Shown here one piece after another: positions 2 to 20,284 of a stretch of DNA of 32,000 nt (positions are counted from its first letter, which is position 1; every line of letters starts with the position of its first letter). A program made the position numbers and the translations under genes. The notes below the pieces were generated by a model, which saw only the letters and a program-made list of their open reading frames with translations, was not told where the DNA came from and did no database searches. Source of the DNA: Halomicronema hongdechloris C2206 (GTDB lineage: Bacteria > Cyanobacteriota > Cyanobacteriia > Phormidesmidales > Phormidesmidaceae); assembly GCF_002075285.3 (NCBI RefSeq), contig NZ_CP021983.2, forward strand, positions 5,280,001 to 5,312,000, given 5' to 3'.

Positions 2-1204
2 TTGGGGGTACTGCAAGGAGCTGAACTTCAGGCCTATGACCATCTGTTGCGACGACAGCCCAATGAAGCCCCAGATGATCGATTCTTGATCGTGACTGTC
101 GATGAGAACAGTGGTTCCCTGCTGCGAGAGCGCCTGATTGCCGGAGACTATGCCCCGACTATCGGCACCATTCCTGATGCTGCCTTGCAAGAAACCCTGA
201 GGATTTTGGCAGAGCATCAGCCGCGTCTGATCGGCCTCGATTTTTATCGAGATTTTCCGGCAACCCCTGAATTGGCTAACAGCCTACGCAGCAGAGACAC
301 CATCATCACCCTCTGCAAGGCCAGCTATGAGGGCGAAGGGGTGCCCAAGTCCCCGGAAGTCCCCTGGGAACGGGTGGGCTTCAGTGATTTGGTCAGCGAC
401 ACCATGACTGGTCCTACCTATATCCGGCGTCACTATATCATGCAGGCCCCTGACCCTGACTTTTGTAATACCCCTAGGTCCTTTAGTTTGCTGCTGGCCA
501 GCCGTTACCTAAAGCAGGAGGCAGCCATCAGCCGCACTGATCCCTTGCTCCCAGTGGGGAACACCTATGAATTTCGCCGCGATGGTCTGGCCTTTGGCGA
601 GACAGTCATCTCCAACCTGACCTTAGGCCGCGGCCCCTATTACCAGGATCCAGACTTCTTCAATGGCTATCAAACCCTGCTGAACTATAGAACTGGCCCC
701 AATCCTGATACTGGTAAGGCGCGAGATCCGGGACAATTTGCTCCGCGGGTGTCCCTAGCAGACCTGCTGACCAATCAAGTGCCTAGACAATGGGTGGAAG
801 ATCGCATTGTGCTAATTGGCTATAGCGATCTGGCCGATCGCAATGCCGACTACTGGCAAACGCCCTATGGCGAGGTGCCCGGGGTAATTTTACAGGGACA
901 AATGGCAAGTCAGCTGATTAGTCGCGTGCTAGATAATCGCCCCCTGATTCGCTGGTGGCCCCTGGGGGCAGAGGTGCTCTGGATTGCAGCCTGGGCCATG
1001 GTTGGCGGGCTAATCTTCTGGCGCATCGTGCGGTCGCGACGACTGATAGTTGCGATTGTTGTGAGCCTCGGCCTCTTATATGGCACAGCTTATATATTGA
1101 TGGTTAGTAGTGCTCTCTGGATTCCCTTGGTTCCCCCTTTGATCACCTTCCTGCTCACGGCAACGGGAGTGGCTGTTCTAAATCACCGACTGCGGAATCC
1201 TTAG
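2..1204 (+). CDS. CHASE2 domain-containing membrane sensor protein (5' end cut by window edge)
   Basis: ORF is open to the window start. CHASE2-type motifs: DDRFLIVTVDENS, RLIGLDFYRDFP, IVLIGYSDLADRNADYWQTPYGEVPGVILQGQ. These are followed by three hydrophobic helices (WWPLGAEVLWIAAWAMVGGLIFW; LIVAIVVSLGLLYGTAYILMV; ALWIPLVPPLITFLLTATGVAVL). TAG at 1202-1204 comes only about 8 codons later, so there is no C-terminal output domain. Confidence 0.8.
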   Translation: MGVLQGAELQAYDHLLRRQPNEAPDDRFLIVTVDENSGSLLRERLIAGDYAPTIGTIPDAALQETLRILAEHQPRLIGLDFYRDFPATPELANSLRSRDTIITLCKASYEGEGVPKSPEVPWERVGFSDLVSDTMTGPTYIRRHYIMQAPDPDFCNTPRSFSLLLASRYLKQEAAISRTDPLLPVGNTYEFRRDGLAFGETVISNLTLGRGPYYQDPDFFNGYQTLLNYRTGPNPDTGKARDPGQFAPRVSLADLLTNQVPRQWVEDRIVLIGYSDLADRNADYWQTPYGEVPGVILQGQMASQLISRVLDNRPLIRWWPLGAEVLWIAAWAMVGGLIFWRIVRSRRLIVAIVVSLGLLYGTAYILMVSSALWIPLVPPLITFLLTATGVAVLNHRLRNP

Positions 1205-1369
1205 GGTGTTGAATGATGTCATCTACTAGTGCTCGACGGTGGCAATAGCCCCCTATTGGTTAAAGGCAGCAGCCTTGAGACGTCGAGAATTCTCCTTCTG
1301 CCTTCTGCCTTTCTGTACTAGTGGTGTTATCTACCGTATCTCCTAGTCATCTAAGGATGCTCTGACGCT

Positions 1370-2542
1370 ATGCCTACCCCCACCTTTCGTCGTCGCCTCG
1401 TCCGCAGACTCGTACCCTTGGTTCTGGCAGTACCGATCATGGCTGCGATCGCACCCCAGGCTGAGGCTGGATTAATCGAACGCATCCAGTCTATTTTCGG
1501 TGGCGGTAATACTGGTGGCCAAGTCAGCAATGGCCGCAGCCGCGGTGGGGCCATCCGGAGAGAAGTCTGCGGGCAACCAGTAGCAGGAACTAGCGAGCTC
1601 GGCAGCACTAGCGAGTCGCAGCAGCCCAATCAGGGGGCCTCTCAGGCATCTGCGGCAGACGTCACCACGGAGCCCAGCTCTAACATGCTGGTAGTCCTAA
1701 GCCCGCCTACACGGCAAAAAACCACCCAGGCCCGCCCTTCGTTTTACCTCTACGTACCCTACGGGCAATCTGCCGAGAACATACGACTGTTCTTCGAATT
1801 GAGCCAGATTAATCCTGAAGTGCCTGTTCCCCATGCCCCCCGCACCATTGCCAACCTACCCCTACAGCTGCCAGAGACCCCAGGATGGGTCAGATTTCAG
1901 GTTCCCGAAGAGATCGCCCTGGAAGTCGGCAAGACCTATGCCTGGAACTTTAATATCCAATGCGTTGCCTCCGAGTCTGCCACTGCAACCGCGTCGGCTG
2001 AGACCGTCTCAGAGCCAGAGAGTACTTCTGAACCTCTAGACGATTCGGTTGATAGTTCGGTCGATAGTAATAGCGCAGGGTTCCCTATCATTACGAGTTT
2101 GCCAGCTAACAGTAGTGGTACCTCGGCTCAACCATCTGGACAAGAAGATACGTTATCAGTCACAGCAGACAACAGCTTAGAAACCGATGGCATCTGGGGA
2201 CAAGTTGAGCGCATTGAGATGCCGCCCAGGTTGATGGTGCGGTTGGACGAACTGGCCGCCAGAGAGTACTTCCCGGTCTATTTAGAATACGAACTCTGGT
2301 TTGAGATGGTGTCTAACCTGGCCACCTTTCAACCGCCCGAATGGCAGGAATTACTGGCCAATTATGAGGCCCTACTGCCATCGCCGGCAGCATCAGACAC
2401 CACAACGGCGGATGCCGAGGCGGTGACAACTGACACTGATACCGCCAGTCCCGCTGAAAGCAGTGAGATCTCGGCAATCACGGCAGACTCAGAGATTGAG
2501 TTACAGGTGATCCGCCCGCTAGAATCCTTACCCATAGAGTAG
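1370..2542 (+). CDS. DUF928 domain-containing secreted protein with Ser/Thr/Asp/Glu-rich insertions
   Basis: ATG at 1370 with AAGGA upstream. Arg-rich leader MPTPTFRRRLVRRLVPLVLAVPIMAAIAPQAEA. DUF928-like signature, recalled from the family: NGRSRGGAIRREVC, LVVLSPP...RPSFYLYVPY, FFEL, PGWVRFQVP, LEVGKTYAWNFNIQC, GIWGQVERI, YLEYELWFEMVSNLA. A low-complexity acidic S/T-rich segment (about aa 200-273, nt 1967-2188) splits the domain, and a similar tail follows. Confidence 0.75.
   Translation: MPTPTFRRRLVRRLVPLVLAVPIMAAIAPQAEAGLIERIQSIFGGGNTGGQVSNGRSRGGAIRREVCGQPVAGTSELGSTSESQQPNQGASQASAADVTTEPSSNMLVVLSPPTRQKTTQARPSFYLYVPYGQSAENIRLFFELSQINPEVPVPHAPRTIANLPLQLPETPGWVRFQVPEEIALEVGKTYAWNFNIQCVASESATATASAETVSEPESTSEPLDDSVDSSVDSNSAGFPIITSLPANSSGTSAQPSGQEDTLSVTADNSLETDGIWGQVERIEMPPRLMVRLDELAAREYFPVYLEYELWFEMVSNLATFQPPEWQELLANYEALLPSPAASDTTTADAEAVTTDTDTASPAESSEISAITADSEIELQVIRPLESLPIE
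1445..1452. repeat. HIP1 octamer GCGATCGC
   Basis: exact match read in sequence. Confidence 0.95.
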
Positions 2543-2561
2543 GCGTCAGAGTAGGATCGAC

Positions 2562-5267
2562 CTAACGCCAACTCCCCACCAGCACGTAGGGCGCCCAGAA
2601 ACGGGGGCGGCCACCATAGCGATCGAACAGGGCGACCTGGGCTCGGCGCAAGGCCTCAGCCCGACTGACCCCTGGTTGTCCTAGGTGCTGATATAGGGTC
2701 TCGGTAAAATACACACTGGCTTCGTCGTCCACACTCCAGAGGGTGGCGATGGTGCTGCTGGCACCGGCCTGGACAGCCGCTCCGGCGATGCCTAGGGCCG
2801 ATCGATCATCCCCTTCAGCCGTCTTGCAGGCGCTGAGAATCAGCAGTTCCAAGCGGTCCTCGGGGGATTGCTGATGCCGACGGAAGACACGTCCCAACTC
2901 ATCGATATTGACGCGACCGTCAGCAGCCAGGATATAAGTGCTGTCGCGGCTACCACTGAATTGGCCGTGGGTCGCTAGGTGCACGATGGTGTAGTCATCT
3001 TGCATCAGGTCTCGTTGCAGAGTTGCTTTCGTAAAGGCCCCATCTCGGATGAAGGTGCCGGAAAAGCCGGCCGCCTGGATTCTGTCCAACTCAACATTGA
3101 CATTGGGCAATGGGACATAGTTATTGGCTTCTTCCGAAGGGGGGGTGGTGAGACCGGCCGCTAGAACAGACAGGTCATCGGGCTCCGGCAGTGGTTGCGG
3201 ATCCCGCAATTCCAGTCCCAACATTAGTGACATGGCATAGGTGCGCAGGAGAAAGTCGCGCCCGTCGTGGAGGGCGGCCATGGGCACCAGGCGTAATGGC
3301 CCATCCAGCACGAAGAGCAGCGTTTTAATCGTCTCTGGGGATAGATAGCCCTGCTCGACCGCCGGTTGCAGTAGCCACTGGTAAAGCGTTTGGCCATTCG
3401 TTTGAACCTCGGTTAACCCCTGCAGTGAACCCCGCTGTAGATTTCGCCGCAGTTGGACCAGGGTGTTGCCAAGGGTCGCTTGGGGCACCGGCGACGCGTA
3501 GTGAACCAACGCCGGCTGGCGAGGGAGCTTGAGAATCACCTCCAGACGATCGTCTAGCAAGATCGAGTAAACCACGGCGGCCGTGGGATCCCCTTGATCG
3601 ACGGCCTGATCGATGTTGACGGTGGTTTCGACACAGGCGGCCTGGAAAAAGTTTTCCAATTCCGCTATCCGTAGGGCTTCCATGACGGTGCGAGCCTGTT
3701 CTAGATTGGTCTGGCTAATCCGGGACTGGTGGGCCTTATGGTGGGCAATGGTGCCATCGACGGGGGTCAGCAGCAGGTCCACCAGGTCTCGATAGACCGG
3801 TTCGACGCTTTCCCGGAAGGAAAACCGTACGTCTGGATTGGCGGCCACCAGATCATTCCGCAGGGTTCGCAGGGAATCAAAGGCCTGTTTGTAGGCACCA
3901 ATGGCTCCCTGGGTGTATCCCTGGGCCTTGAAGATACGCCCCAGCTGCCATTGCCAGCGATAGCTGATGTCGTCGGCTCGCAGGGCTTGAGACAGGGCCA
4001 GGGCCTGCCGTGAAAACTGCTCGGCAGATCGCCAATGGGCTCTCTGTTCATACAGCTTACCCAGAGTGCCCAGGACAAAGGAGTGCGATCGCATGTCTCC
4101 CAGGTCCTCCGCCTGGGCCTGGGCCGTCAGCAACAGGGCCTCGATATCCTGCCAGGGGGGGGTCTGAGTCTGGGTGTTTTGCTTCAGGGTGATTAAACTA
4201 TCGGCCAGCTTGACATGGCCGTAAATGGCCGGACGGCCAGGGGGGAGTTGGCTGAGGCTGACTTCCACACTGGGATAAAACTGCAGGGCCGATGTCCATT
4301 GAGCAATGGTCGGGGACGTCAACAGCGCCAGGGTATTCAGCCGAGCCTGGGCGGCAATGGCCGCCGTATTCATGGCGGCGGCGGCTCGATAGGCTTGCAG
4401 CGCAGCATTGGCATGGTCTAAGGCTGCCCGCCCTTGCCGTTGATCGAAGGCCACGACGAAGCGGCTCTGCTCCAGGTTGCCCAGACTCAGCTGGGCTGCC
4501 GCCACCTGCTCAGGGAGGTTGAGTTCTGCCGCCAGGGCCAGGCTGCGACGCAGGATATCTTCCGCCTCGGCCAGATTTCCGTTGGTCCTAAAGGCATCCC
4601 CCAACCACTGCAGGGTTTGGACCTTGGCGATGGAATCGGGCTGATCCTGTAGGAAGGCTTGTAATTCCTGTAACGTTAGCAGCACCCGACGGTACAACCC
4701 TTTAGCCCGAAAGACTTGAACTTGATGGATACGGCTAAGCATCTGCCGTTGAACATCGCCGGCCTGTTTATACGCCGCCTCGCTCCGCTGCCAGCTCTCC
4801 AGGGCGGCCTCTAACTCGCCCTGGGAAAATTGCAATTGCCCCTGCACATCGTAAATCTGGGCCTGGACCATGAGGGGCACCGAAGGCTGCTCCGCCAGGA
4901 GTGTACGCGCTGTGGTCAAATCGGCGGTGGCGGCATCCCATGCCCCCCCAGCTTTTGATGGGCCAGGGAGAGATTACTCAGGGTAATTGCTGCCTGGAGG
5001 GGGTTTCCCTGATCCAGATACAGCTGTTGTAGATCTCGGAGTAACGAGGCCGCGGCTTGATAGTCACCGTTGTCGTAGTGGGCTTTGGCCTGATGCCGCA
5101 GATCCTGGGGGAGATTGGGCCACCTCAGGAGAGGCCACGGCTAACATATCTGAGGTCGACGGGGACAGGTCTTGCTGGGCAATGGCCGGACTCAGCAGCA
5201 CACAGAAAACGATCGTCACGGCCCCCAGTAGGAGAAAGCGCACCCCAGAGAATCGAGTCATGATCAT
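2562..5267 (-). pseudogene. TPR-CHAT (caspase-fold) protease with Sec signal peptide; reading frame broken twice as the sequence stands (longest intact ORF 2562..4919)
   Basis: ORF 2562..4919 starts at an internal TTG (Leu of ...ATADLTTARTLL...). The N-terminal ~400 aa are TPR-like repeats. The C-terminal CHAT fold has His in IVHLATHGQF (codon 2967-2969) and Cys in LLILSACKTAEGD (codon 2826-2828). Upstream in the same frame, ORF 5064..5267 encodes the leader MIMTRFSGVRFLLLGAVTIVFCVLLSPAIA/QQ. The ~55 codons between them read as TPR sequence (QDLRHQAKAHYDNGDYQAAASLLRDLQQLYLDQGNPLQAAITLSNLSLAHQKLG) only in another frame. That frame is entered near the G5 run 5107-5111 and left at the C7 run 4943-4949. 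Sequencing error cannot be excluded. Confidence 0.7.
4085..4092. repeat. HIP1 octamer GCGATCGC
   Basis: exact match read in sequence. Confidence 0.95.
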
Positions 5268-5314
5268 CCCGTAACACAGCTTGAATCGGCTCCACAGGCA
5301 CCGGTGTCCCGCCG

Positions 5315-7125
5315 CTAGAAAAAGGCATAATCCACGGTGAAGTAAACGCCCCGTTCCTGCAGGGAATTGGCCTCTGTATTGGTATCCACCAGGGGCAGGC
5401 CGATGTCTAGGCGAGCCCGGAGAGCCTCCATCTGAAATAATAGTCCGGCCCCCAGCCCCGCGATGAAGTTGGTATCCGGATTGGCCTCCTCGGTATTCCA
5501 GCCGTAGCCCAAGTCAATGAAGGGCACCACCACCTGCAGTAGGGCGTCATGCTCCGGATTACGGTAGATGGGAAGCCGCACCTCCAGGGAGGCCAAGGCA
5601 CCATTATCGGTGAGGAGCTCGTCCTGACGATAGCCGCGCACCGTAGCCTGACCCCCAATGCCGATTTGCTCCAGCCCCAGTAGGGAATCTGGCGTCAATT
5701 GCACACTGCCCTTCAAAAGCAATAGGGTGTCGGGGGCCAGCAATCTCACCCACTGGGCCTGGCCTTGCCAGGAGAAGAAGCGACTATCGGGACCGGTTTC
5801 GTTGATGGTGGCCCCCAGCATGTCGAAGCCCAGGTTGAATTGCGATCGCACCGCGAGCACCTGCTCAAGGCTACGTTGGGTCCATTCCTGAAAGAAGCCT
5901 AAGGATGACACCACCGTCTGGCCATCCTCATCGGCCCCCCGGGACAGGGGAAACCCGCCGATATCGGCAATCCCCAGAAAGGTTTGAGTGCGTTCTCGCG
6001 AGAGTTGCAATCCCAGGGCCACTTCCCGGGTCGGGGTTTCGATCAGGGGATGGCGCAAGGTCAGGGCCAGGGCTCCGGAGTCCGCCGTGATGTCTAGGAC
6101 ATCGAAGGGATCTTCAATCACCTCGCTGTCGGTGGTGGTAAAGTCAACGGCCAGGGTAGTGTTGTCGGGGCTGACGGGCAGAGTATAGGTTAAATCGAAG
6201 CCCTTACTGCCGGACGTGCTGGTATACCCCAGGGTGAGGCGGTCGCCGAAGCCGCTGACGTTGCCTTCTCGCAGCTCAACCTGATGGCGCAGGCTACCGA
6301 CAGCCGGGGAGCGATTATTGTCCAGGGTGTAGCCCACATCGAAGCTGTCGGCCTCCACCACAGACACCGCCAGGAAATTGGTGTGCCGGGCCGAACTCCG
6401 GCCTGTAAATCGGCGGAAATGCTGTCGATCAACGGATCCAGTTGTAACAGTTGCAGGCGATTCAACAGCCGATTCACATTCAGCGGGGCCTGGGCTCCCA
6501 CCGCTAGACGGCTGCTGATATAGCCGGGATGCAATCGCCGGGTGCCCGTAACCTTGATGTCTTCCAGGCGGCCTTCGATGACCTGAATTTGCACTACCCC
6601 ATCTACCAGGGGTTGAGGCGGCAAGATCGCCCCGGAGGTGATGTAGCCGTTGTCCAGATACAGCTGGGTCACCGCCGAGCGGGCCTCGAGAATCTCGGCG
6701 AAGGTGACGGGACGATTGGTAAAGGGCTCGGTTACCGCTGCCAGGGTCTCAGGGGAAAACACCGTACTGCCCACCACCTCAAAGCGCTCGATGACGAGGG
6801 TGGCTCCATTGCCAGGGGGGGCAATTTCCGGGCTCGGGGGTTGGGCCTCCGGGCTCGGTTGCAGTAGATCTGGCGAGGGTGGCTCTAACGGCAGAGAATC
6901 TGGCAGCGGCTCCGGCTGATCGGGGAGAATATCCTGCTGGGTCGGGGGCTGTTGAGCTAGGGGCTGGGGGATCGCTATTGGGGCAGGCTTGAAGCTCTGC
7001 TCCCAGACAGGTCCAGGAGGATGTGAACTCTCCGCTATGGCAGGCCCAACGCCATTGCCGCTGCAGGTGATGGCCAGACCCCACCCCCAGCAACAATATT
7101 GGTAAACGCTCATGCGCCTGCTCAT
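5315..7125 (-). pseudogene. ShlB/FhaC/HecB-family TpsB outer-membrane transporter (POTRA + beta-barrel), interrupted by one frameshift
   Basis: The N-terminal part (ATG at 7125, forming ATGA with the tpsA1 stop at 7122-7124) has a signal peptide MSRRMSVYQYCCWGWGLAITCSGNGVGPAIA and a Pro-rich linker. It also has a POTRA-like region LVIERFEVVGSTVFSPETL...VIEGRLEDIKVTGT...LLQLDPLI. The C-terminal part (5315..6367) is a ShlB-type barrel ending in the aromatic YAFF. The two parts are in different frames. The junction ...DLQAGVRPGT / NFLAVSVVEADSFDVGYTLDN implies one missing base near 6379-6382. The 6367 'start' is an internal GTG. Confidence 0.75.
5842..5849. repeat. HIP1 octamer GCGATCGC
   Basis: exact match read in sequence. 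Confidence 0.95.
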
Positions 7126-10100
7126 GGCTCCATCTCTGACACCAGTGCACATCCCTGGTTAGTCACGGTACTGGCGGGTACTGGAGCTGCAGCAGACTCT
7201 GCCGCGATGAAGTAGACTTGGCCATCGGCTCGGGTAATCCAGCCATCGGCCTCCACTAGCGAACCCGCTGCAGCGGCAGGGGTATCCGGCACCCTGGCGG
7301 CAGCACCGTCTTCATGGGTGACCCAGGGTACAGAGATGGCGGACTGTGCGATCGCATCTAAGGTTCCCGGACTAGGGGGCAATCCTCCCCGGCCCGAGAC
7401 AATAAACTCACTCTGCTGGGCGGCGACGGCGGCATCTGGGCCACATCCCTCCGCAATTTGATCCGCCGGATCATCCAAATTGACCGGCAGTTCTGCCAAC
7501 CCACGACTGGGATCTAAATCCAGCGTGTCGATATCGATCGTGCCCTGGAGGCCAAACTCAGAGCTGGCACTGATGTCATTGCTGGTATTACTGCGAAGCT
7601 GCCCGAAGGTGAGGCCACTGGGCTGAGTAAACCCGAAGATATTGTTGGCGGAAATGGTAATATTGCCCCCGTCTCCCAAGATCGAGTTGGCAATGATGTC
7701 GCTGTTTTCCTGGGGAACAGCAACGACAAAATCCGCAGAGATGCTGATATCCCCGCCATTTACGAGACTATCCCCAAAGGCATCTGCAAGCATTAGACTA
7801 CCCTGGCGCAGCACCAACACCTCCACATCACTGACAGCAATATCACCGGCCTCGCCTGCCCCTTCAGTATCTGCCTTGATCTCGGTGTCATTGAGGATGA
7901 TGACCTTGGCTGATTCCAGGGTGATTCGCCCTCCCGTACCGGCACCACCCGTTGTCGTGGTGGTGAGGTCACTGCCATTAAATACCATGTCCCCAGATGC
8001 GGAGCTAACTATCTGAATGCCACCCGCATCGCCAGTGCCACTGGAATCAGCCCTTAACTCCGTTGAATTGAGCGTCACTCCATCGTCGCCAGATAAGCGG
8101 ATACCTCCCCCATCTCCCGTTGCCTCAGTGCTACTGGTAAAGGCACTGTCGTGAACGGTGAGTCGGCCGGAACTGCTGATATTGATCAAGCCTGCCGGCA
8201 GACCACTCTGGGTGTTACTTTCCAGGATCACCTCCTCCAGGCTGAGATTCCCTGAGCTTTCAACGGTAATATTGCCGGACAGGCCGACACCGTCGACGGT
8301 AATCGTTCCCCCGGTCAGATCAGGCAGCATCGCCTGGGAGGTGCGAATCTCTAGATCGCTAATGTGCAGGTCGCCAAACCCTGAAATCCTCACATTGCCG
8401 GCATCACTGAAAAAATCAGAGGATAGGGTGAAAATCTCCAGGTTACTAATCTGGGTACCGGCTTCTAAGAGCACATCCCCTCCGGAGCCAGCTCCCTGTC
8501 CCGCCGTATCGGCTACGGCAAAGGTAATGATTTGAGACCCCATCGTTGGACCCATGATCTGCCCCTGGGGAGCAGACAGGCGCACATCCCCACCATTGCC
8601 AGCATTCCCATCCTTAGAAAAAGACGACGCGGCAATCACATCCATGAGGCTGATATTGCCATTGCTGGCGATGAAGGTAACGGCGCCTCCATTGCCAGAA
8701 TCACCTGTGCTTTCGGCAAAGGAATCTGCAAAGACCGATCCATTGACCGTGATATCGCCATGCTCGGCCCTCAGGGTAATGGCACCGCCATCGCCCGCAT
8801 CCCCCCCTGAGGATTGAGAAAAGGCCAATAGGTCCCCGGTGGTTATATCGCCCAGGGCGGACAGGAGAATCGGGCCGGCATCATTAGGCCCAGGGGCACT
8901 GGTATTGACTTCGCCGATCAGGATGCTACCGGGTTGCAATCCCGCGACGGCGACACCGCTAGCAAAGATGGTACCACCGGTGGTGATCGCAATATTGGGA
9001 TTGGTCACGGCGGGCACCCCGGCCCGCAGAATCAGGGCCGGCAGAGTGCTGAGAATGTCAACGTCTGGATCGGAGGCAGGAATGCCCACATCAGGTCCGG
9101 TAATACGGATATTTCCCCCCTCAATGCTGCCGGTGGCTTCCACCTTCAGGGCGGCTCCAGTGTAGTCGCCGAATACCACATCTCCGTTGGCCTGGATGAT
9201 GGGGTCATAGAGGCTGACAAAGTCGCCTGGAGTTCCCGCCAGAGTCAGCACGTACCATCCGCCACCACTGGCAAAGCGAGCATCTCCCGAGATGATGCCA
9301 TCACTCATCAGCCGCAGGGCACCCCCACTCACAAAGGGAGTGTGGTCTGGATGGTTCAGGGCCAGGATATCAATGGCACTATCCCCCTGAACCGTGAGGT
9401 CCCCTGCGGCATGGGCTGAGAAGACCTCCGCCGGAGTATCACGAATGACAATGGTATCGGCAGCATGGAGGCTCAGGTCTCGGCCAGCCAGCAACTGCCC
9501 CGTCAGCAATAGATACTTACCCCCCAGGATCAGGTCCTGCCCCGTTTCCAAGCGACCAGCGGTGATGATATCTCCCACCGGCAAGCGATTGGCCTGGACT
9601 CCCAGCGGTACACTGAGGCTCAGCAGCTCCCCGGCGGCAGGGATGGCACTGAACTCACGGCCATCGGCGAAGTCGATTCCTTCAGTTGTCGTCGCGACGA
9701 AGGAGCCCCTGACGTCCAACTGGGCGTTGGGCCCAAACAGGATGCCATTAGGATTGAGCAGAAACAGATCGGCGGTACCGTCTACCCCTAATAACCCATC
9801 AAGGGTAGACAGGCTCCCCCCTGTGACCCGGCTCAAGATGGTGTCGATGCCGAGGGGATTAGCGAAATAGACCCGCTGACCGGTGTTGACGTTGAACTCC
9901 CGAAAACTATGGAATAAGTTAGCACCCCGCTGGGCACCCCCATCGATGTGAATGGCACCATTCCCGTTAATCAGGACATGAGGGGTAATGACAGAGCTTT
10001 CTCCTGCCAGACTGGCATCGGGAATCAGTTGTGCTTTTGCCGACCCTGTCCCTGATACCCCACTGCCTGCCAGGACAACTAGCCCCCAACAGAGTTGAAT

Positions 10101-10127
10101 CGAGCAGTAGGACGCAGGGAGTCGCAC
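7122..10127 (-). CDS. TpsA-type exoprotein 1 (filamentous-haemagglutinin N-terminal/TPS domain, beta-helix repeats, conserved C-terminal module)
   Basis: GTG at 10127 with GAAGGTGA 4 nt upstream. Signal peptide ends ...GTGSAKA/QLIPD. TPS-domain motifs: GAQRGANLFHSFREFNV, YFANPLGIDTILSRVTGG, LFLLNPNGILFG (NPNG). Repeated G-x-GG-x-(I/V)-x-(L/I) beta-helix units: GDGGAITL, GNGGAVTF, GNGGDVRLS, GSGGDVLLE, GDGGGIRLS, GDAGGIQIV, GTGGRITLE, GDGGNITISANNIFG. C-terminal module: C...FIVSGRGGLPPSPG...VPWV...LVEADGWITRADGQVYFIA...C. Confidence 0.85.
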   Translation of the reverse strand: MRLPASYCSIQLCWGLVVLAGSGVSGTGSAKAQLIPDASLAGESSVITPHVLINGNGAIHIDGGAQRGANLFHSFREFNVNTGQRVYFANPLGIDTILSRVTGGSLSTLDGLLGVDGTADLFLLNPNGILFGPNAQLDVRGSFVATTTEGIDFADGREFSAIPAAGELLSLSVPLGVQANRLPVGDIITAGRLETGQDLILGGKYLLLTGQLLAGRDLSLHAADTIVIRDTPAEVFSAHAAGDLTVQGDSAIDILALNHPDHTPFVSGGALRLMSDGIISGDARFASGGGWYVLTLAGTPGDFVSLYDPIIQANGDVVFGDYTGAALKVEATGSIEGGNIRITGPDVGIPASDPDVDILSTLPALILRAGVPAVTNPNIAITTGGTIFASGVAVAGLQPGSILIGEVNTSAPGPNDAGPILLSALGDITTGDLLAFSQSSGGDAGDGGAITLRAEHGDITVNGSVFADSFAESTGDSGNGGAVTFIASNGNISLMDVIAASSFSKDGNAGNGGDVRLSAPQGQIMGPTMGSQIITFAVADTAGQGAGSGGDVLLEAGTQISNLEIFTLSSDFFSDAGNVRISGFGDLHISDLEIRTSQAMLPDLTGGTITVDGVGLSGNITVESSGNLSLEEVILESNTQSGLPAGLINISSSGRLTVHDSAFTSSTEATGDGGGIRLSGDDGVTLNSTELRADSSGTGDAGGIQIVSSASGDMVFNGSDLTTTTTGGAGTGGRITLESAKVIILNDTEIKADTEGAGEAGDIAVSDVEVLVLRQGSLMLADAFGDSLVNGGDISISADFVVAVPQENSDIIANSILGDGGNITISANNIFGFTQPSGLTFGQLRSNTSNDISASSEFGLQGTIDIDTLDLDPSRGLAELPVNLDDPADQIAEGCGPDAAVAAQQSEFIVSGRGGLPPSPGTLDAIAQSAISVPWVTHEDGAAARVPDTPAAAAGSLVEADGWITRADGQVYFIAAESAAAPVPASTVTNQGCALVSEMEP
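7348..7355. repeat. HIP1 octamer GCGATCGC
   Basis: exact match read in sequence. Confidence 0.95.
9594..10034 (-). repeat. Paralogous TPS-domain segment (copy in tpsA1)
   Basis: Aligns codon-for-codon with 12267..12710. My manual count gives 26 mismatches in 181 nt, about 85 percent identity, for 9720-9900 versus 12396-12576. Confidence 0.8.
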
Positions 10128-10157
10128 GATATCACCTTCAGAAATGAGTCAACCGTA

Positions 10158-12806
10158 TCACGGGAGCCAGGCATTACACGGCACAGCGGCAGTCAGGCTT
10201 CGAGGCGTTATCGAGGAAGCGTCCGCCACAAAATATATTTGACCATCGGCATCGGTGATCCAGCCTTGGGCTTCCACTAGCCTTGGCAGTTGCTCCGTTC
10301 TGGTGTCTGACCGGGTGATGGATGGTAGGGCCTCTGTCGTCACCGCTGGCAACTCCTCATCGACAGCCACCCAGGGAATCTCCACAGGGTCAGCGGCTTG
10401 TGGATCGGTTGGCCCTGGGGGCAATCCACCCCGCCCGGAGACAATGAAGCGATCGTCGGTGTTGCACCCGATGGCGCTACTGAGCGTCAGGTTTTCGGAG
10501 GCTGGTTCTGCGGGCAAGTCAGGATAGCCATCGTCTGCTTCTACATCGTCTCCGGTGTTGTCAGCAGTGGCTCCAGGAGGGCTGATGTCATTGGTGGAGT
10601 TATTCCTAAGTTCATCGAAACTCAGCCCCTCCTGGAAGATAAACCCCTCAATTTGGGCCACATTTAAGCTCAGTTGATTGTCGGAAATAATATCTGCATT
10701 GACAGTGTCGGAGACAAATACTGTAGACGTAAATGAGTCAAAATCCAAGGCCCGTAATCGATCGGCCTCAATCTGAATCAGATCCGTGGCAAATACTAAG
10801 CTATTGAAAAATAAATCGAGTCTATCGCCAGCATCTATCTTGACAGTTTCCCCTTCAACGGTCGTATCTTCTCCGAAACTAATGTTGTTCCCAGTCAGCA
10901 AAACTTTTCCTTGATCGGCATCAATAGTTGGCCCAGAAGATGTAGATATTCCATTGAAATCACCCATTCCAGTGATAGAGATGGTGCCCCCACTGCTGGT
11001 AATATCTTCCATGGCAATAAACACTCCAATGCCATTGACACTATTACCAACAATTTCAATATTTTCCCCATCGCTATCAATGGGCGAGGCGAAAAGCCTG
11101 ACTCCGTTCCCAGAGCCAAAGGTTGAATTGCTGTTGCTTCCTGTAATCGAAATAGTGCCGCCGCTACTCTCAATGGATGTTGAGGAAATAGTGACTCCGT
11201 TGCCAGAGCCGGTGTTTGCATTTCCTCTGATTGAAATCTTGCCGTCGCCGCTCTCGATAGTTGACGATGTTAACGAGACGCCATTAATGGCATCCATGGT
11301 GGCATTTCCCGTGATGAAAATATCGCCGCCGTCACTCTCAATGGATGCCAAGAAAAGATCGACGCCGTTGCCAAACTCAATATTGTTGGCGTTTCCCGTG
11401 ATGGAAATATCGCCGCCATTACTCAAAATTGATACAGAGCCTGAGGGAAAGGGAGCAATACTGACATTGCCGTCGCCATCGCCATCGCGATCTCCTAACA
11501 AGATCACAGGCAACGGACCCGCCATAGACAAAATATCAGCCTGAATCAAAATATTTCTGTCTGCTTCTAGGGTGAGGGTGGCCGCCCCACCATCTGTCTT
11601 TTCGATGACCGCACCTGGTTCCTGAGTGATGTCTCCAGCCTCGCTGCCGCCAATGTTGGTGGTGATGGTGACGCTGGTGCCATTATTGAGGGCTAAGTTA
11701 ATCTGATCCGCCCCCACAATACTGATGTCGATGCCAGTGACACCCATGGGCACGATGGTGATGTTAGTGGGGTCGATCAGCCAGAGGCCGCCGCTGCCAC
11801 TGGGGGCACTGGCGTCAACACGGGCGGTGACATGCAGGGTGTCCTTGGCCGAGGTTTCAATTAGGCCACCATCGCCTCCTAGGGTGCCGCCTCGGGCTGT
11901 GAGCGAGCCCTGGATGTCAGCCGCTTCATCGGCCCAGATAATAATTTGCCCTCCCTGGCCCCACTCTCCGGCATCGGCTCGGATGGTGGCGCCTGGTGCC
12001 ACTGTGGTTCTGCCGGCGGTTGGAATGGTTCCCTGTCCCTGATAGTCCCCACCCACTAGAACCGTGCCGCCATCGGTCAGCCCAGAGACATTGATGCTGG
12101 CGTTGTTTTGCAGATTGACCTGATTGCCTAACACCTGCACAGTGCCGCCAGGCACCTGTAAGCTGCCGCTGCTGGTGACAGTATCGCCAAACAGGGTTAG
12201 GGTTTGCTCGGGAGCCAGCGCTAAGGATCCTCGTACGGCAATATTGCCCTGAGGAGCCGTCCAGGTCTGCACCCCCAAGGGCATACTGACACTCAGCAGG
12301 TCTCCACCGGGAGAAGGGATGGCGCTGAACTCATGGCCATCGGCTAGGGGCAGGCTGTTGGCGGTGCTGACGAAGAAAGAGCCGTCTAGATCTAACTGGG
12401 CGTTGGCACCGAAGAGGACGCCATGGGGATTGAGCAGAAACAGGTCGGCGGCACCGTCTACCCCCAGCAGGCCATCGATGGTAGACAGGCTCCCCCCGGT
12501 GACTCGGCTCAAGATGGTGTCGATGCCGAGAGGGTTGGCGAAATAGACCCGTTGACCAGCATTGACGCTGAACTCCTGGAAGCTGTGGAACAGGTTGGCG
12601 CCCCGCTGGGCCCCGCCATCGATGCGCGTGGCACCACTGCCATTGATGACAGCATTGGGGGTAACCACAGAACTGTCTGCTCCGAGGCTGGCATCGGGGA
12701 TTAACTGCGCCCCTGCGGCAGACATACCAGTGGTGATACCGACTCCAAGGGAGACAACACCCAGGAATGAAGAAACACCAAACCGGCACCAGTAGGCTTG
12801 CACCAT
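10158..12806 (-). CDS. TpsA-type exoprotein 2 (TPS domain, GGDGGLIETS...WLIDP motif, six tandem beta-helix repeats, same C-terminal module)
   Basis: The ORF extends to a TTG at 12872, but the ATG at 12806 (MVQAYWCRFGVSSFLGVVSLGVGITTGMSAAGA/QLIPD) gives a normal signal peptide. TPS motifs: GAQRGANLFHSFQEFSV, YFANPLGIDTILSRVTGG, LFLLNPHGVLFG. Central IIIWADEAADIQGSLTARGGTLGGDGGLIETSAKDTL...GGLWLIDPTNITIV is typical of large TPS exoproteins. C-terminal module: C...FIVSGRGGLPPGP...IPWV...LVEAQGWITDADGQIYFVA...C. Confidence 0.85.
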   Translation of the reverse strand: MVQAYWCRFGVSSFLGVVSLGVGITTGMSAAGAQLIPDASLGADSSVVTPNAVINGSGATRIDGGAQRGANLFHSFQEFSVNAGQRVYFANPLGIDTILSRVTGGSLSTIDGLLGVDGAADLFLLNPHGVLFGANAQLDLDGSFFVSTANSLPLADGHEFSAIPSPGGDLLSVSMPLGVQTWTAPQGNIAVRGSLALAPEQTLTLFGDTVTSSGSLQVPGGTVQVLGNQVNLQNNASINVSGLTDGGTVLVGGDYQGQGTIPTAGRTTVAPGATIRADAGEWGQGGQIIIWADEAADIQGSLTARGGTLGGDGGLIETSAKDTLHVTARVDASAPSGSGGLWLIDPTNITIVPMGVTGIDISIVGADQINLALNNGTSVTITTNIGGSEAGDITQEPGAVIEKTDGGAATLTLEADRNILIQADILSMAGPLPVILLGDRDGDGDGNVSIAPFPSGSVSILSNGGDISITGNANNIEFGNGVDLFLASIESDGGDIFITGNATMDAINGVSLTSSTIESGDGKISIRGNANTGSGNGVTISSTSIESSGGTISITGSNSNSTFGSGNGVRLFASPIDSDGENIEIVGNSVNGIGVFIAMEDITSSGGTISITGMGDFNGISTSSGPTIDADQGKVLLTGNNISFGEDTTVEGETVKIDAGDRLDLFFNSLVFATDLIQIEADRLRALDFDSFTSTVFVSDTVNADIISDNQLSLNVAQIEGFIFQEGLSFDELRNNSTNDISPPGATADNTGDDVEADDGYPDLPAEPASENLTLSSAIGCNTDDRFIVSGRGGLPPGPTDPQAADPVEIPWVAVDEELPAVTTEALPSITRSDTRTEQLPRLVEAQGWITDADGQIYFVADASSITPRSLTAAVPCNAWLP
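10938..11438 (-). repeat. Six in-frame tandem repeats (26-31 aa each) inside tpsA2
   Basis: Protein units: SILSNGGDISITGNANNIEFGNGVDLFLA / SIESDGGDIFITGNATMDAINGVSLTSS / TIESGDGKISIRGNANTGSGNGVTISST / SIESSGGTISITGSNSNSTFGSGNGVRLFAS / PIDSDGENIEIVGNSVNGIGVFIAME / DITSSGGTISITGMGDFNGISTS. The DNA shows the recurring ...gtgatggaaatatcgccgcc... pattern. The region looks more AT-rich than its surroundings. Confidence 0.8.
12267..12710 (-). repeat. Paralogous TPS-domain segment (copy in tpsA2)
   Basis: See 9594..10034. The offset is constant at 2676 nt with no indels across the compared stretch. Confidence 0.8.
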
Positions 12807-12842
12807 GGTTCCTGGGGGATAGACTGCACGAGATTTGCAGGG

Positions 12843-12872
12843 ATAGTACAGCCTGACTATTCGACAACGCAA
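12843..12872 (-). promoter_or_regulatory. Candidate sigma70-like promoter upstream of tpsA2 (TTGCGT-18 nt-TACTAT on the minus strand)
   Basis: Plus-strand acgcaa at 12867-12872 and atagta at 12843-12848. A better -35-like TTGACC (ggtcaa 12895-12900) lies further upstream without a matching -10. Weak, by eye only. Confidence 0.2.
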
Positions 12873-12921: not shown

Positions 12922-13866
12922 TTAGGGCTGGGTCGTGGCTTCAGGGCTTAGATCGACCCAGGTTGTCTGGAGGGGGACCGCTTCTCGATGTTTGGGATGA
13001 ATCCGTAGAATATATAGGGTTTTCTCAGGTAGGGCAGGGATGCGGTGCTCTGGAACCGTCAGGGGATACCAGTCCAAGGGAAAGCAATCGCGGCTGTAGT
13101 GGCTGAGGTAGACGGCATAGTCGTTGAATAGGGCTGGAGCCAGCTGTATAGTGAGCCTCTCTCCGGGGGCGAGGGCACCGAAGTAGAAGTGGGTCTCGGG
13201 ATTGGGGACCGGCAGAAAGGTATCGTGCACGAAGCGGGCCGGCAACCAATGGCGATAGCGCAGCAGCGGATAGACGTAGTAGTTTAGCCAGCGGTGAATC
13301 CAGCGACGCCGTTGGATCAGATCGCGGTAAAACCAGTTGGCATCGGGAGGAGCCGGTCGAGTTTCAGCAGTTAGGGCCAACTGACCATCGACTGTAATGG
13401 CCGGCAGCTCAATCGGATCAGACCAGTGGTAATGGCGCAACCCCACCAGATAGCGCCCTGGTGGCAGTGATATCTCTACCGGGGAATCTGTGGGGTCGGT
13501 GGTGAGGGAACTGATGCTGGTCAGGGTTTTGAAGCCCTGCAGGGTGTATATCACGGCGGTCCAGGAGGGGGCCGAGCGGAATAGGGAGGCGGTATCAAGT
13601 TGTAAGCTGGTTTGGACGGTAAATGGACCTGCGATCGCAATTAAGGCATGGAGATTCCAGCGGGCCCGACTCATGGTCCACAGCAGCTTCAGCGGGCTGG
13701 CCAGAAATTCGGCGGAGACCACCTGCCAGTCCGGTTTGGCCTTGCGATTGGCCGGATTATAATAACGGCTCAGCAGGGTCAGGGTGGCCTTTAAGGCTCG
13801 GGAAAAGAGGAAAGACAGCAACCCCAGGGGAACTTCCCAGAGGACATCCCAGGATGGCCTGCTCAT
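12922..13866 (-). CDS. Hypothetical protein (314 aa), translationally coupled to the Ols PKS
   Basis: The ATG at 13866-13864 overlaps the PKS TGA at 13865-13863 (ATGA). The ORF is long and uninterrupted, with composition like its neighbours. It has a hydrophobic N-terminal stretch (VLWEVPLGLLSFLFSRALKATLTLL) and is rich in W/Y/R/H. I recognise no motif. Confidence 0.6.
   Translation of the reverse strand: MSRPSWDVLWEVPLGLLSFLFSRALKATLTLLSRYYNPANRKAKPDWQVVSAEFLASPLKLLWTMSRARWNLHALIAIAGPFTVQTSLQLDTASLFRSAPSWTAVIYTLQGFKTLTSISSLTTDPTDSPVEISLPPGRYLVGLRHYHWSDPIELPAITVDGQLALTAETRPAPPDANWFYRDLIQRRRWIHRWLNYYVYPLLRYRHWLPARFVHDTFLPVPNPETHFYFGALAPGERLTIQLAPALFNDYAVYLSHYSRDCFPLDWYPLTVPEHRIPALPEKTLYILRIHPKHREAVPLQTTWVDLSPEATTQP
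13631..13638. repeat. HIP1 octamer GCGATCGC
   Basis: exact match read in sequence. Confidence 0.95.
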
Positions 13867-16800
13867 GGCAAAGGGCCTCGCTGCTGTAGGATGCGAGCCA
13901 AGGCGGCTGGGGTCTCTAGGGGCAGATGATGCCCGCCATCCAGCTGCAGTTGTTCTGCCTCGGCTAGGGCCTCTTGTTGTAGGGCCAGGTCCTCGGGCCG
14001 GTTGAACCGACTGTGACTACCGAAGACCAGGGTAGTGGGCACCTGAATCTGGCCCAGCAACTGCTGATAGTGGCGGCGACTGAAGACGGCACTGCCCAAA
14101 CCAGCATTGGTGCGCAGTTGCAAGCGCGGATCCCAGCGCCAGCGAATGCCACTTTCCCAGGGTTCCGTGACGCGACCGGCCAGGGCCTCGGCCAGAGACG
14201 GATCGAGCTGGGGGATCACCTGTTGCAAACGATGGGTAGCTGCAGTCAAATCTGGCCAGACTGGATGGCTAGGGGTGCTGCTGAGGTAATCGAGCTGCGT
14301 CGCCAGCCGTTGCGGCTGGGTGTCGGTGTCATCGCGATCGGGCACGATGGGCTCTACCAGTATCAGTCGATCGGCCAGCTGGGGCCGGGCACTGGCCAGG
14401 GTGGCGGCGATTACCGCCCCCACTGAGTGACCCACCAGGAGACAAGGTTGTCTGTCTAGGGCCTGCAGTAGGGCATCGATGTCAGCCACAAAGTCCAGTA
14501 GCTGATAGCTGCCGCCTGCTCCGATATGGTCAGAGCGCCCGTGCCCTCGCAGATCCGGGGCGATGACTCGATAGCCCTGGGCTGCCAGAGACGATGCGAT
14601 CGCATCCCAGATTGCCCCCTGCTCCAAAATGCCATGGAGACAAAGGACCACGGGTGCCGAGGCTGGCCCCCAAGTACAGAGACAGAGAGAGAGCCCCCGC
14701 AGCGTGAGCTGCTGCTCCGTCATGGTAGCCAGGGGTGATGCGGTCGGGCTGGACGGTGATGGAGTAGTCGTCAGGGGATAGTGCAAGTCATGGGCCAGAG
14801 CCTCAGCCTTGTCCCCCAAGGGATGGGGCAACTGTACCTGCTGCCAAGCATGGGCCAGAGTCGGATCGATCTGGCGGCGGCGGTGAAAACTGGGGTCGTC
14901 AATGCTGCGCGACTGGGCCTGCACCCCATCAGTCATGCGGTTGCCCTCATAGGGGGCCAGTACAGCCGGATCAAAGGGCACCGCTAAAAAGTCACAGAGA
15001 TCCCGTAGGATCGGTTCTGGCTCCCTGACCAGGTCTTCGTATCGGAGCTGGTGGCCACGGTCAGGTCCCACCTGTTGCAGAAACTGGAGAATGTTGTGAT
15101 TGCTCTCCCACCAGGCCTGTTCGGCGATGCGGTACGGATCCCTATGGGCCAGCGTATCCAGAGTAAACAGCTTCTCCATGCGGTGGCGCACGAAGGAGTC
15201 GATCACCGCATAGGGATGGCGCACCAGATGGATGTAGCGGGCGTCTTCAAAGAGCTGCTCGGCCCGCTCCAGGGCCGCCAGGCTAAAGCCATAGGTGGGC
15301 GACTTATCCAGCAATAGTCGGGGAGCCGCCAGTTGTTGCAACTTGTCGTAGATGTCGGCCACGCCATAGCCCAAAGTCAACCATTCCTGTAACAGGGCCT
15401 CACTGGCCGCAGCATCCAGGTCCATCAGGTCCATCAAAGCCCGCTGCAACCCTTCCTCCAGGTAGCTTTGCCCCAGGGCTTGGCGGCGCTGGACCAGGGT
15501 CTGAAAGGGCAGCAGATGGAGTTCGGGCGGGCAGAATAGCTGGGAATGGCCGGCCAGCATCACCCGCAGCAGGGTGGAGCCAGAGCGGGGACTGGAGAGC
15601 AAAAAGACGGCCCGACCATTGCGCCGTGGTGGCGGTGTCGCCTCGACGAGGGTGGGCCAGAGATGGGCGCCTAGGGAGGGAACTGGCTCCGAGTCAGGGG
15701 CAGCCGTTGGGTTGGGTTGGGAGCGGGCCAATTCTCGGGCCAAGTAGGCACTGAGGGCATCCAGGGTGGGGTGCTTCATTAGACCTCCCGGCCGATAGAG
15801 CATCAACTGTAGGTCCCGCTGGCAGGTGTTGAGCAGGTCCATGGTCATGAGGGAATCTAGGCCCAGCTCCATCAAAGTTTGCGAATCGCACGCCAGCGTC
15901 CCTTCATGGCCCATGACCCGAGCTAATTGCCTCTGCAAATAGTGCTGTAGGGCCCGGCTGCGTTCAGCCTGATCCAGCCGCAACAATTCCTGCCGCAATC
16001 GGTAATCGCCTGATCCGATGGCACCGCAGACTCTGGTGTCTATCAGGGAGCTCAGATAGGGAGACCCCGGCAGATAGCCCTTGAGGACGGCCCAATCAAT
16101 GGCTGCAACCCCCACCTGAGCCGGTAGGGCATCCGCCCAGCCTAAGAGATGCCCCAGGCAGGGCAACGCCTGGGCCGGGGCCAAGGGTTCAATCCCTTGG
16201 GACTGCAGGCGCTCTTGCACTCCGGCAGTAGCCATACCAGCACCAGCCCAGGGTCCCCAACTCAGGCTCAGGCCCGGTAGCCCTCGCTGGCGACGGTATG
16301 CCATGATTGCCGCCAGCCCAGTATTGGCAGCGCCATAGCTACCCTGGCCCGGAGGCCCCAGCAGGGCCGCCAGGGACGAAAACCCCACAAAGAAGTCCAG
16401 GGGAATATCTTTAGTGGCTTGGTGTATCTGCCAAGCCCCCTTTAGTTTCGGCGCCAGCACAGCCTGAAACCGCGACCAGGATTGGTGTCGTAGTAAACCA
16501 TCATCCAGGCGACCGGCCAGATGCAACACCCCCTTCAAGGGCGGCAACTCCGTCTGAATTCGGTCGACCAAGGTGGTTACCGCCGCCGCATCGGTAATAT
16601 CAACGGCCTCTAGCCTGACCTGTATGCCCATCTGGGTCAGGGTATCTAGGGCCGGGTCAGGGCGGGGATGGCGACTGACTAGCACCAGCTGTCGGGCGCC
16701 CTGTTGAGCCAGCCATTGAGCCACCTGTACCCCCAAAGCACCAGTGCCGCCTGTAATCAGATAGGTAGCCTGGGCCTGAATCGGAATGGCCATCGGTGCG

Positions 16801-20267: not shown

Positions 20268-20284
20268 AGACTAACCCTCGAGCA

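Follow-up and report, generated by a model that had tools for sequence, protein, structure and literature searches.

A conserved cyanobacterial gene cluster combining a two-partner secretion operon, a TPR-CHAT protease gene and a CHASE2-DUF928 gene pair

We analysed a stretch of 32,000 nt from the genome of Halomicronema hongdechloris C2206 (NZ_CP021983.2, 5,280,001-5,312,000), referred to below as the window, which carries a cluster of six genes for envelope proteins. Two of them, encoding a CHASE2 receptor and a protein of the DUF928 family, lie on the forward strand and converge on an operon-like group on the reverse strand, which encodes two TpsA exoproteins of a two-partner secretion (TPS) system, a TpsB transporter and a protease made up of TPR repeats and a CHAT domain. 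The cluster combines known parts in a way that has not been described, and it is conserved across many, mostly filamentous, cyanobacteria. The genes are listed below in window coordinates, with the open reading frames (ORFs) and E-values of the profile matches.

2-1204, forward strand: CHASE2 receptor gene, 3′ part (last 400 codons and stop codon); Pfam CHASE2 (PF05226), E=1.5e-47
1370-2542, forward strand: DUF928 gene, 390 aa; Pfam DUF928 (PF06051), 7.5e-21
2562-5267, reverse strand: TPR-CHAT protease gene; Pfam CHAT (PF12770), 2.1e-52, and TPR, on ORF 2562-4919
5315-7125, reverse strand: tpsB; Pfam ShlB, 6.9e-24 (ORF 5315-6367), and POTRA_2, 5.9e-23 (ORF 6190-7152)
7122-10127, reverse strand: tpsA1, 1001 aa; Pfam TPS (PF05860), 4e-45; TIGR01901, 7.5e-26
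10158-12872, reverse strand: tpsA2, 904-aa ORF with likely start at ATG 12806; Pfam TPS (PF05860), 2.9e-42

The domains that the initial annotation of this DNA had assigned to these products (CHASE2, DUF928, TPR, CHAT, POTRA_2, ShlB and TPS) were all borne out by the Pfam profile search, and the gene spacings it gave were exact. A gap of 30 nt separates the tpsA2 stop codon (10158) from the GTG start codon of tpsA1 (10127), the stop codon of tpsA1 overlaps the tpsB start codon at 7125 in the sequence ATGA, and 47 nt lie between the tpsB stop codon (5315-5317) and the ATG of the CHAT gene (5267). The DUF928 protein matches XM38_050260 of H. hongdechloris C2206 with 100% identity. On the left the CHASE2 gene runs off the end of the window, and its 5′ part lies outside. 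The right-hand limit of the cluster is sound, the next gene (12922-13866, DUF6208) belonging to an adjoining polyketide synthase (PKS) operon. The Rfam scan found no RNA family in the window, no tRNA gene is present in it, and a scan for promoters and terminators gave counts near those of shuffled sequence. PADLOC detected no known defence system, only domain-level matches to TIR and weak matches to TPR and BovA. The DNA repeats in the window reflect only the paralogy of the two tpsA genes and the periodicity of their beta-helices.

The conservation of this neighbourhood was examined in a sample anchored on DUF928. The search motif, PTFWFY[VLI]P, was taken from a subset of 22 sequences, and the sample is biased towards that subfamily. 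A scan of GTDB with the motif gave at least 589 confirmed matches, of which 79 loci were taken (labelled L001 and so on), mostly from named cyanobacterial genomes, many of them filamentous; the ORFs in these loci were labelled by jackhmmer seeded with the proteins of the window and of L001. Among the 68 loci with at least 2.4 kb of upstream sequence, CHASE2 was the next upstream gene on the same strand as DUF928 in 61, with a median gap of 62 nt. Coverage extended to at least 9 kb on either side of DUF928 in 35 loci, of which 16 contain a secreted-type TPR-CHAT gene, 19 a TPS gene and 14 both. Of 27 testable TPR-CHAT loci, 18 have a tpsA gene as the immediate upstream neighbour on the strand of the protease gene. 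Six further look-ups, anchored on orthologues of the CHAT gene, gave a TPS gene directly upstream in all six, with tpsB between the two in three. In three of these six, DUF928 and TIR-CHASE2 genes follow the CHAT gene in convergent orientation (Desmonostoc muscorum, Lyngbya aestuarii and one metagenome); all three thus show the layout of the window, save that the metagenome locus lacks tpsB.

Two layouts recur. The first is the convergent one seen in the window, in which CHASE2 and DUF928 face a reverse-strand group of tpsA, sometimes tpsB, and CHAT. In the second, all genes are co-directional in the order CHASE2, DUF928, tpsA, CHAT: in eight loci with CHASE2 upstream, a tpsA gene on the same strand starts 31-64 nt after DUF928, and TPR-CHAT follows it in five of the eight (L029, L034, L039, L066 and, by its map, L049). 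These data bear on one explanation of the locus, mere adjacency, according to which a TPS adhesin operon with its own protease happens to lie beside a separate CHASE2-DUF928 receptor pair and the two are not coupled. In its favour, the DUF928-CHASE2 pair occurs without CHAT or TPS genes in about half of the loci, and tpsA and CHAT occur together without DUF928 in L083, L085 and L087. However, the neighbourhood recurs in distant lineages and in two orientations, the gaps between DUF928 and tpsA look operonic, and every secreted-type CHAT gene found (n=38) lies within 5.7 kb of a DUF928 gene, with none at 5.7-10 kb. We therefore regard adjacency without coupling as improbable.

The initial annotation had proposed that the six genes form one system. 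The strong synteny of CHAT, DUF928 and CHASE2 with TPS genes in many other cyanobacteria agrees with the first part of that proposal, a conserved neighbourhood; the single system has to be replaced by two modules that are often but not always linked. The pairing of CHASE2 with DUF928 appears to us very probable, and that of TpsA with the protease probable. The link between the protease and TpsA, also put forward initially, is well supported by gene adjacency, by the fusion proteins described below and by a C-terminal domain common to the TpsA proteins. Other neighbours, such as genes for a tRNA synthetase, KAS, a CCG-domain protein and DNA polymerase III, were considered and set aside as housekeeping genes outside the system.

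Both TpsA proteins carry a TPS secretion domain, recognized by PF05860, by the filamentous-haemagglutinin N-terminal model of NCBIfam (TIGR01901) and by NLFHSF and NPNG/NPHG motifs. At the other end of each protein lies a conserved domain without a Pfam match, here called TpsAC. The positions of these parts are as follows.

About 9354-10034, reverse strand: TPS domain of TpsA1, with NLFHSF and NPNG motifs
7125-7742, reverse strand: C-terminal domain of TpsA1 (TpsAC), with Cys895, SGRGGLPP (7374-7397), an EADGW hairpin (7239-7253) and Cys993
About 12030-12707, reverse strand: TPS domain of TpsA2
10161-10778, reverse strand: C-terminal domain of TpsA2, with Cys803, SGRGGLPP (10416-10439), EAQGW (10260-10274) and Cys899

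Identity between the two paralogues is 62% in the N-terminal region with the TPS domain and 35% over roughly 220 aa at the C-terminus. From an alignment of 32 homologues, the TpsAC consensus reads, in the N to C direction, DPSxGLxELP, a Cys, xFxxTGRGGLPxsP, a variable linker, vEAqGWxxxxGxVxLxA and a second Cys. The Arg of the GRGG motif is about 90% conserved and is a Ser in four homologues. Among the TpsA genes of the six CHAT-anchored loci, all eight with a readable C-terminus encode GRGGLP and exactly two Cys in the last 200 residues. In an AlphaFold2 model of the 206 C-terminal residues of TpsA1, the beta-helix continues through the first ~70 residues, the segment from the Cys to GRGGLP is a low-confidence linker, and the EAxGW hairpin is predicted at about pLDDT 84; beyond the last coils of the beta-helix the confidence of the model was too low for a fold search.

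TPS exoproteins that have a distinct C-terminal module and occur as two tandem paralogues also fit the pattern of contact-dependent inhibition or polymorphic-toxin systems, in which the C-terminus of TpsA would be a toxin and the neighbouring genes would provide immunity or maturation. The C-terminal domain is nevertheless conserved across cyanobacterial lineages and not polymorphic, its AlphaFold2 model is mostly low-confidence linker and hairpin without an enzyme-like fold, no Pfam toxin domain was matched, and no small immunity-like ORF follows either tpsA gene. We consider a toxin system at this locus extremely improbable.

The N-termini of TpsB and of both TpsA proteins read as signal-peptide-like, and none reaches the hydropathy threshold used; export of TpsA by TpsB in this cluster is predicted. 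An array of 84-nt (28-aa) repeats in tpsA2 (10967-11433, reverse strand) corresponds to successive coils of the beta-helix and has a G+C content of 52-53%, below that of the neighbouring genes.

The TPR-CHAT protein had been described initially as a protease with a signal peptide and an intact His/Cys dyad, and the DUF928 protein as having an Arg-rich leader. Hydropathy analysis showed both leaders, with a hydrophobic stretch after the Arg-rich one of DUF928; that of TPR-CHAT is a Sec-type signal peptide (ending in AIA and followed by QQ), and the N-termini of its homologues are mostly hydrophobic. The catalytic His (codon 2967-2969) and Cys (codon 2826-2828) lie in HLATHG and LSACKT motifs and are invariant in 38 of 38 homologues. 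Proteolytic activity is predicted from these features, and gene linkage makes the C-terminal domain of TpsA or the DUF928 protein its putative substrate.

Two types of fusion protein tie the protease physically to the TPS pathway. In the first type, CHAT forms the C-terminus of a TpsA protein (1746 aa, L007:11631-16871(-); 1660 aa, L011:1660-6642(-)). These proteins have neither TPR repeats nor the GRGGLP/EAxGW domain, and the catalytic Cys is the only Cys outside the N-terminal signal region. In the second type, a protein of 1513 aa with a signal peptide (L072:6298-10839(-); L074, Mastigocoleus testarum) consists of POTRA, POTRA_2, TPR and CHAT, with no match to the ShlB barrel. The POTRA domains are the periplasmic, TpsA-binding part of TpsB (PMC5422565). 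As judged from its predicted domains, this fusion is in effect a soluble protease equipped with the domains by which a TpsB binds TpsA. Genes for ABC transporters (ABC_membrane and ABC_tran) were also seen beside tpsA or TPR-CHAT genes (L047:15441-18482(+) and L063:1-1332(+)); the L047 protein has 1013 aa, of which the N-terminal ~450 aa have no domain assignment.

The DUF928 protein belongs clearly to its family, with a profile match of 75 bits against a cut-off of 26. The family is of modest size: a search of 1.84 billion proteins gave 222 representatives at E<=0.001. The window protein comprises, in order, the Arg-rich signal peptide, a disordered, basic, Gly-rich motif, a beta-sandwich and four C-terminal helices. 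The motif GRSRGGAIR (1532-1558) is followed by Cys67, giving GRSRGGAIRxxxC, and a second conserved Cys (Cys198) lies within the Ig-like beta-sandwich. The core of the AlphaFold2 model has a pLDDT above 90. A fold search against the PDB gave generic Ig-like or beta-sandwich matches, none of them with an E-value under 1e-3, and a sequence search against solved structures gave no match. The sole paper found that names DUF928 mentions a CHASE2-DUF928 neighbourhood in Nostoc punctiforme and an acid-stress response of sll1891. At 390 aa the window protein is longer than typical family members (about 250-280 aa), the excess consisting of acidic, Ser/Thr/Pro-rich low-complexity stretches before, inside and after the core, with pLDDT mostly below 60. 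L059 (6785-8900(+)) and L007 each hold tandem or duplicated copies of DUF928, and at least two separate DUF928 loci per genome were found in Dendronalium, Nostoc minutum, Stenomitos and Mastigocoleus; the system is multi-copy in some genomes.

The pattern G-R-x-x-G-G, common to DUF928 and the C-terminus of TpsA, was considered as an Arg-specific cleavage site shared by the two proteins. It was kept only as a lead, being undercut by the Ser that replaces the TpsA Arg in four homologues and by the strict variant of the DUF928 motif, which follows phylogeny and not the presence of TPR-CHAT.

The receptor was examined with the help of loci L001-L003, the reference relative, in which DUF928 is 78% and the visible part of CHASE2 89% identical to the window proteins. 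The visible part corresponds to residues 658-1057 of the orthologue L001:6662-9835. That protein, of 1057 aa, consists of three TIR domains (TIR_2, Pfam, 5.8e-73), one transmembrane-like segment, CHASE2 and a C-terminal hydrophobic block, which we read as three transmembrane segments. In the window protein the hydrophobic block after CHASE2 likewise reads as about three segments, in agreement with the roughly three transmembrane helices noted initially. A CHASE2 domain with a hydrophobic segment before it, as in L001, and a hydrophobic block after it is the arrangement of a CHASE2 receptor. The TIR motif (Y/S)CxxE(L/I/V), known for the role of its Glu, is present with the conserved Glu three times in the L001 orthologue, and at least once in all nine TIR-CHASE2 proteins of the sample.

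The cytoplasmic heads of these receptors vary. Among 59 CHASE2 partners of DUF928, the N-terminal head was CHAT in 35, AAA_35 in 12 and TIR in nine; a kinase, EAD1 and trypsin were found once each. The caspase-type heads retain GH and SC motifs resembling a catalytic dyad. In the proteins of the window and the L001 receptor, no Pfam match to GGDEF, EAL, LapG or LapD-type domains was obtained. Kaur et al. (2021) list the effector domains and effector-associated domains (EADs) of counter-invader conflict systems (PMC8195603), and because the heads resemble these, the receptor, judged by its domain composition, seems closer to an output of the system than to a controller. The initial suggestion that the system is under the control of a CHASE2 sensor found no support, as there is no regulatory output domain and the head of the orthologue is three TIR domains.

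Several observations were made on genes around the receptor. A GAF-HisKA-HATPase-REC hybrid histidine kinase (L001:4277-6592(+)) lies directly upstream of TIR-CHASE2 in the closest relative, and in L042 a GAF-PAS hybrid kinase (6870-9782(+)) takes the usual place of the CHASE2 gene, directly upstream of DUF928. A 771-aa Peptidase_C14 protein (L087:17307-19622(-)) and WD40 proteins are encoded in L087, and a Ser/Thr kinase-WD40 protein follows DUF928 in L036 (10708-12543(-)). These conflict-type genes echo the WD40-CHASE2-DUF928 cluster of Nostoc punctiforme (PMC5587647).

The nature of the heads is also relevant to an inside-out scheme of adhesin release, similar to that of LapD-LapG-CdrAB. 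Here the CHASE2 receptor, perhaps through DUF928, would hold or free TPR-CHAT according to a cytoplasmic state read by the TIR, caspase or AAA head, and the freed protease would cut the periplasmic tail of TpsA and shed the adhesin, with consequences for aggregation and for biofilm formation or dispersal. The parts correspond (a TpsA whose Cys-containing tail would lie in the periplasm, a TpsB, a Cys protease of the same compartment, and a receptor of the inner membrane that exposes a domain on the periplasmic side), LapG and CdrA provide a precedent (PMC4694147, PMC5422565), and in several loci the four genes are co-directional and tightly spaced. On the other hand, the TIR, caspase, trypsin and EAD1 heads resemble effectors or EADs of conflict systems and none is a known second-messenger receptor; GGDEF, EAL and LapD-type domains are absent by Pfam, as noted above; and in about half of the loci DUF928-CHASE2 has no TPR-CHAT gene nearby. 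Inside-out release thus seems unlikely to us. As the heads belong to the effector type and include no known messenger-binding domain, we favour signalling from outside to inside over control of the protease by the receptor.

In the deposited sequence neither tpsB nor the CHAT gene is a single ORF, as the initial annotation had taken them to be. The reading frame of tpsB shifts near 6381-6385, and a tblastn alignment breaks at residue 247. In the CHAT gene the frame is left at a run of five C (5107-5111) and regained at a run of seven G (4943-4949), and the frame read on from the signal peptide meets two stop codons between the two runs. DNA alignment with an intact close relative located a 2-nt insertion, AC, near 6381-6385 in tpsB, and insertions of one nt (C) in the C5 run and two nt (GG) in the G7 run of the CHAT gene. 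Removal of 2 nt from tpsB gave a clean ORF of 602 aa, 88% identical to the 601-aa relative, and removal of 3 nt from the CHAT gene gave a clean ORF of 900 aa, 82% identical to the 898-aa relative. TpsB therefore has its POTRA_2 and ShlB domains and adjoins tpsA, with a frame broken by two additional nucleotides where the relative is intact. For CHAT, the deposited annotation holds only a 769-aa protein without a signal peptide, the orthologues having about 850-980 aa.

Reads from 454 and early PacBio instruments are prone to indels, those from 454 especially in homopolymer runs. As the genome was assembled from 454 (17x), early PacBio RS (14x) and 36-bp Solexa reads (PMC6416890), homopolymer errors are plausible. 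The AC insertion in tpsB is not a classic homopolymer-type error. The alternative is that the three insertions are real and that the C2206 system is a recent relic making neither TpsB nor a secreted CHAT protease, which would be compatible with any of the functional readings. It would account for three indels, one of them a dinucleotide outside a homopolymer, in two neighbouring genes of a 32-kb window in which no comparable overlapping split is seen among the other listed ORFs of 150 aa or more, and the single assembly of the strain that was found annotates the 769-aa protein without a signal peptide. Against decay, two of the three indels lie in the C5 and G7 homopolymer runs, the types of reads used include indel-prone ones, both genes are full-length with no further lesion once 5 nt are removed, and the repaired genes are conserved to the same degree as their neighbours (82-88% versus 78-89%). 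We regard a relic as a real possibility, albeit not the probable one.

The arrangement that we tentatively propose is one of two coupled envelope modules. In module A (tpsA2-tpsA1-tpsB-TPR-CHAT), TpsB would export two beta-helical TpsA proteins to the cell surface. The C-terminal domain of TpsA, with its two Cys and GRGGLPxxP, would be kept in the periplasm as a disulfide-locked anchor comparable to those of HMW1 and HxuA. The Sec-exported TPR-CHAT protein would be a dedicated periplasmic protease whose TPR part binds the C-terminal segment of TpsA and whose CHAT domain cleaves there, leading to release or maturation. TPR repeats typically bind extended peptides, and the GGLPxxP segment is for this reason a candidate docking or cleavage region. 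Module B, (3xTIR-CHASE2)-DUF928, would be an inner-membrane receptor in which the periplasmic CHASE2 domain works with the secreted, Ig-like DUF928 protein as co-receptor or ligand, and the cytoplasmic head would be the effector, TIR in this cluster and caspase, AAA_35 or others elsewhere. For the coupling, an envelope event involving TpsA and the protease would be reported through DUF928 and CHASE2 to the TIR domains, with NAD+ cleavage or TIR signalling and consequent growth arrest, death or another switch of cell state as the outcome. The whole chain, both modules and their coupling included, is the reading we prefer, although we would place it slightly on the doubtful side of the balance.

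A more specific version gives the TpsA filaments the part of trip-wires. Damage to these surface proteins, or their contact with a phage, a predator or a neighbouring filament, would lead TPR-CHAT to cut the anchored C-terminal domain of TpsA and/or DUF928, and the product would be sensed by the DUF928-CHASE2 receptor, whose TIR heads (caspase heads elsewhere) would start an abortive or altruistic response. If this were true, CHASE2 would gain a first defined protein ligand, and the cluster would provide the first example of an immune-type effector fed by type Vb secretion. As a complete account we find it unlikely.

Several results weigh against the coupled-module arrangement. A tpsB gene is rarely adjacent: TpsB matches occurred in six loci, and two of these were the POTRA domains fused to TPR-CHAT. 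The modules are separable, with TPR-CHAT near only 16 of the 35 fully covered DUF928 loci and DUF928 and CHASE2 absent within 10 kb in three of the six CHAT-anchored loci. In the TPS-CHAT fusions, CHAT could be cargo rather than a processing enzyme. A strict cut after the Arg of GRGG is doubtful because this residue is not invariant. The TIR part of the window's own receptor lies outside the window and is predicted from the orthologue. With two genes of module A frameshifted, either this module may be inactive in C2206 or the deposited sequence may be wrong, and a search of the proteome supplements that accompany the genome paper did not return the locus tags of the cluster.

The cluster adjoins an olefin-synthase-type pathway (12922-22504, reverse strand). 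Its genes include a FAAL-ACP loading protein (20285-22504, reverse strand) and a PKS with the domains KS-AT-KR-ACP-sulfotransferase-thioesterase (13863-20267, reverse strand). The ATG of the DUF6208 gene (12922-13866) overlaps the stop codon of the PKS gene, which suggests that DUF6208, a family of unknown function, is translationally coupled to olefin synthesis.

These results give DUF928 a context, as the near-constant partner of a set of CHASE2 receptors. To our knowledge the natural ligands of CHASE2 are undefined, and the DUF928-CHASE2 pair makes the question of the ligand testable. The cluster also links envelope proteins to TIR and caspase heads in mostly filamentous cyanobacteria and so bears on programmed cell death and immunity in bacteria. 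The Pfam-unmatched C-terminal domain of TpsA, with GRGGLP, EAxGW and two Cys, offers a concrete experimental handle, and orthologous clusters occur in the Nostocales, an order that includes genetically tractable strains.

The TPR-CHAT protein can be compared with Csx29 of the type III-E CRISPR 'Craspase', which likewise places TPR repeats ahead of a CHAT protease domain containing a His/Cys dyad, and which is encoded alongside gRAMP/Cas7-11 and acts in the cytoplasm. The protein described here differs in having a signal peptide and in being encoded beside tpsB, tpsA and DUF928; no cas gene was found among the window ORFs of at least 150 aa, and PADLOC gave no CRISPR-related match, which places it outside the Csx29/Craspase class.

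Caspase-CHASE2 fusions were listed in 2010 (PMC2853523), and EACC2-caspase-(CHASE2) systems that include an extracytoplasmic function sigma factor and DUF1822 were predicted by Kaur et al. (2021; PMC8195603). The DUF928 loci share features with these systems: most encode a caspase/CHAT-CHASE2 protein (35 of 59), the effector-type heads are variable, and in the loci scanned the gene for the caspase/CHAT-CHASE2 protein comes after one for DUF1822, accompanied or not by a sigma70_r4 gene, or after one for an AAA_35 protein. The clade of the window has three TIR domains instead of the caspase and, in L001, a hybrid histidine kinase upstream, with no DUF1822 or sigma gene called in that orthologous locus, and it therefore does not fall into the class that they defined. 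DUF928 does not occur in the main text of their paper. The initial annotation had stated that no experimental description of such a cluster was known, and our literature search agreed, finding this partial computational precedent only and no paper linking CHAT with TPS genes.

Among TPS systems, the TpsA proteins HMW1 and HxuA have C-terminal disulfide anchors (PMC5422565). By analogy, the short C-terminal region with two Cys that follows the beta-helix of the TpsA proteins studied here may act as a periplasmic tether. There is no detectable sequence relationship, and here the two Cys lie roughly 100 residues apart, with a variable linker and the GRGGLP and EAxGW motifs between them.

The closest functional parallel is LapD-LapG-CdrAB of Pseudomonas aeruginosa, in which LapG cuts the periplasmic tail of the TPS adhesin CdrA (PMC4694147, PMC5422565). 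A TpsB-exported TpsA, a periplasmic Cys protease acting on its C-terminal tail and an inner-membrane protein with a periplasmic domain are common to both, in our case as predicted from the genes. The likeness is functional only, and the cluster is not of the LapD-LapG class. The protease has a CHAT (caspase) fold with TPR repeats, whereas LapG is transglutaminase-like; the membrane protein is a TIR-CHASE2 protein, whereas LapD is a c-di-GMP-binding GGDEF/EAL protein; DUF928 is an additional constant partner; and the protease gene lies inside the TPS operon.

Proteases that mature TPS proteins are generally not encoded in TPS operons (review PMC5422565). As far as we found, this cluster would be the first example of a TPS family whose operon includes the gene for its own dedicated protease, which here has a caspase fold. 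FhaB of Bordetella, for instance, is matured by SphB1, a subtilisin autotransporter at the cell surface that is encoded away from fhaB/fhaC (PMC5422565). Both cases would involve a dedicated protease for a TpsA adhesin; in contrast to SphB1, the protease described here is of caspase fold and encoded within the operon, and its predicted location is the periplasm.

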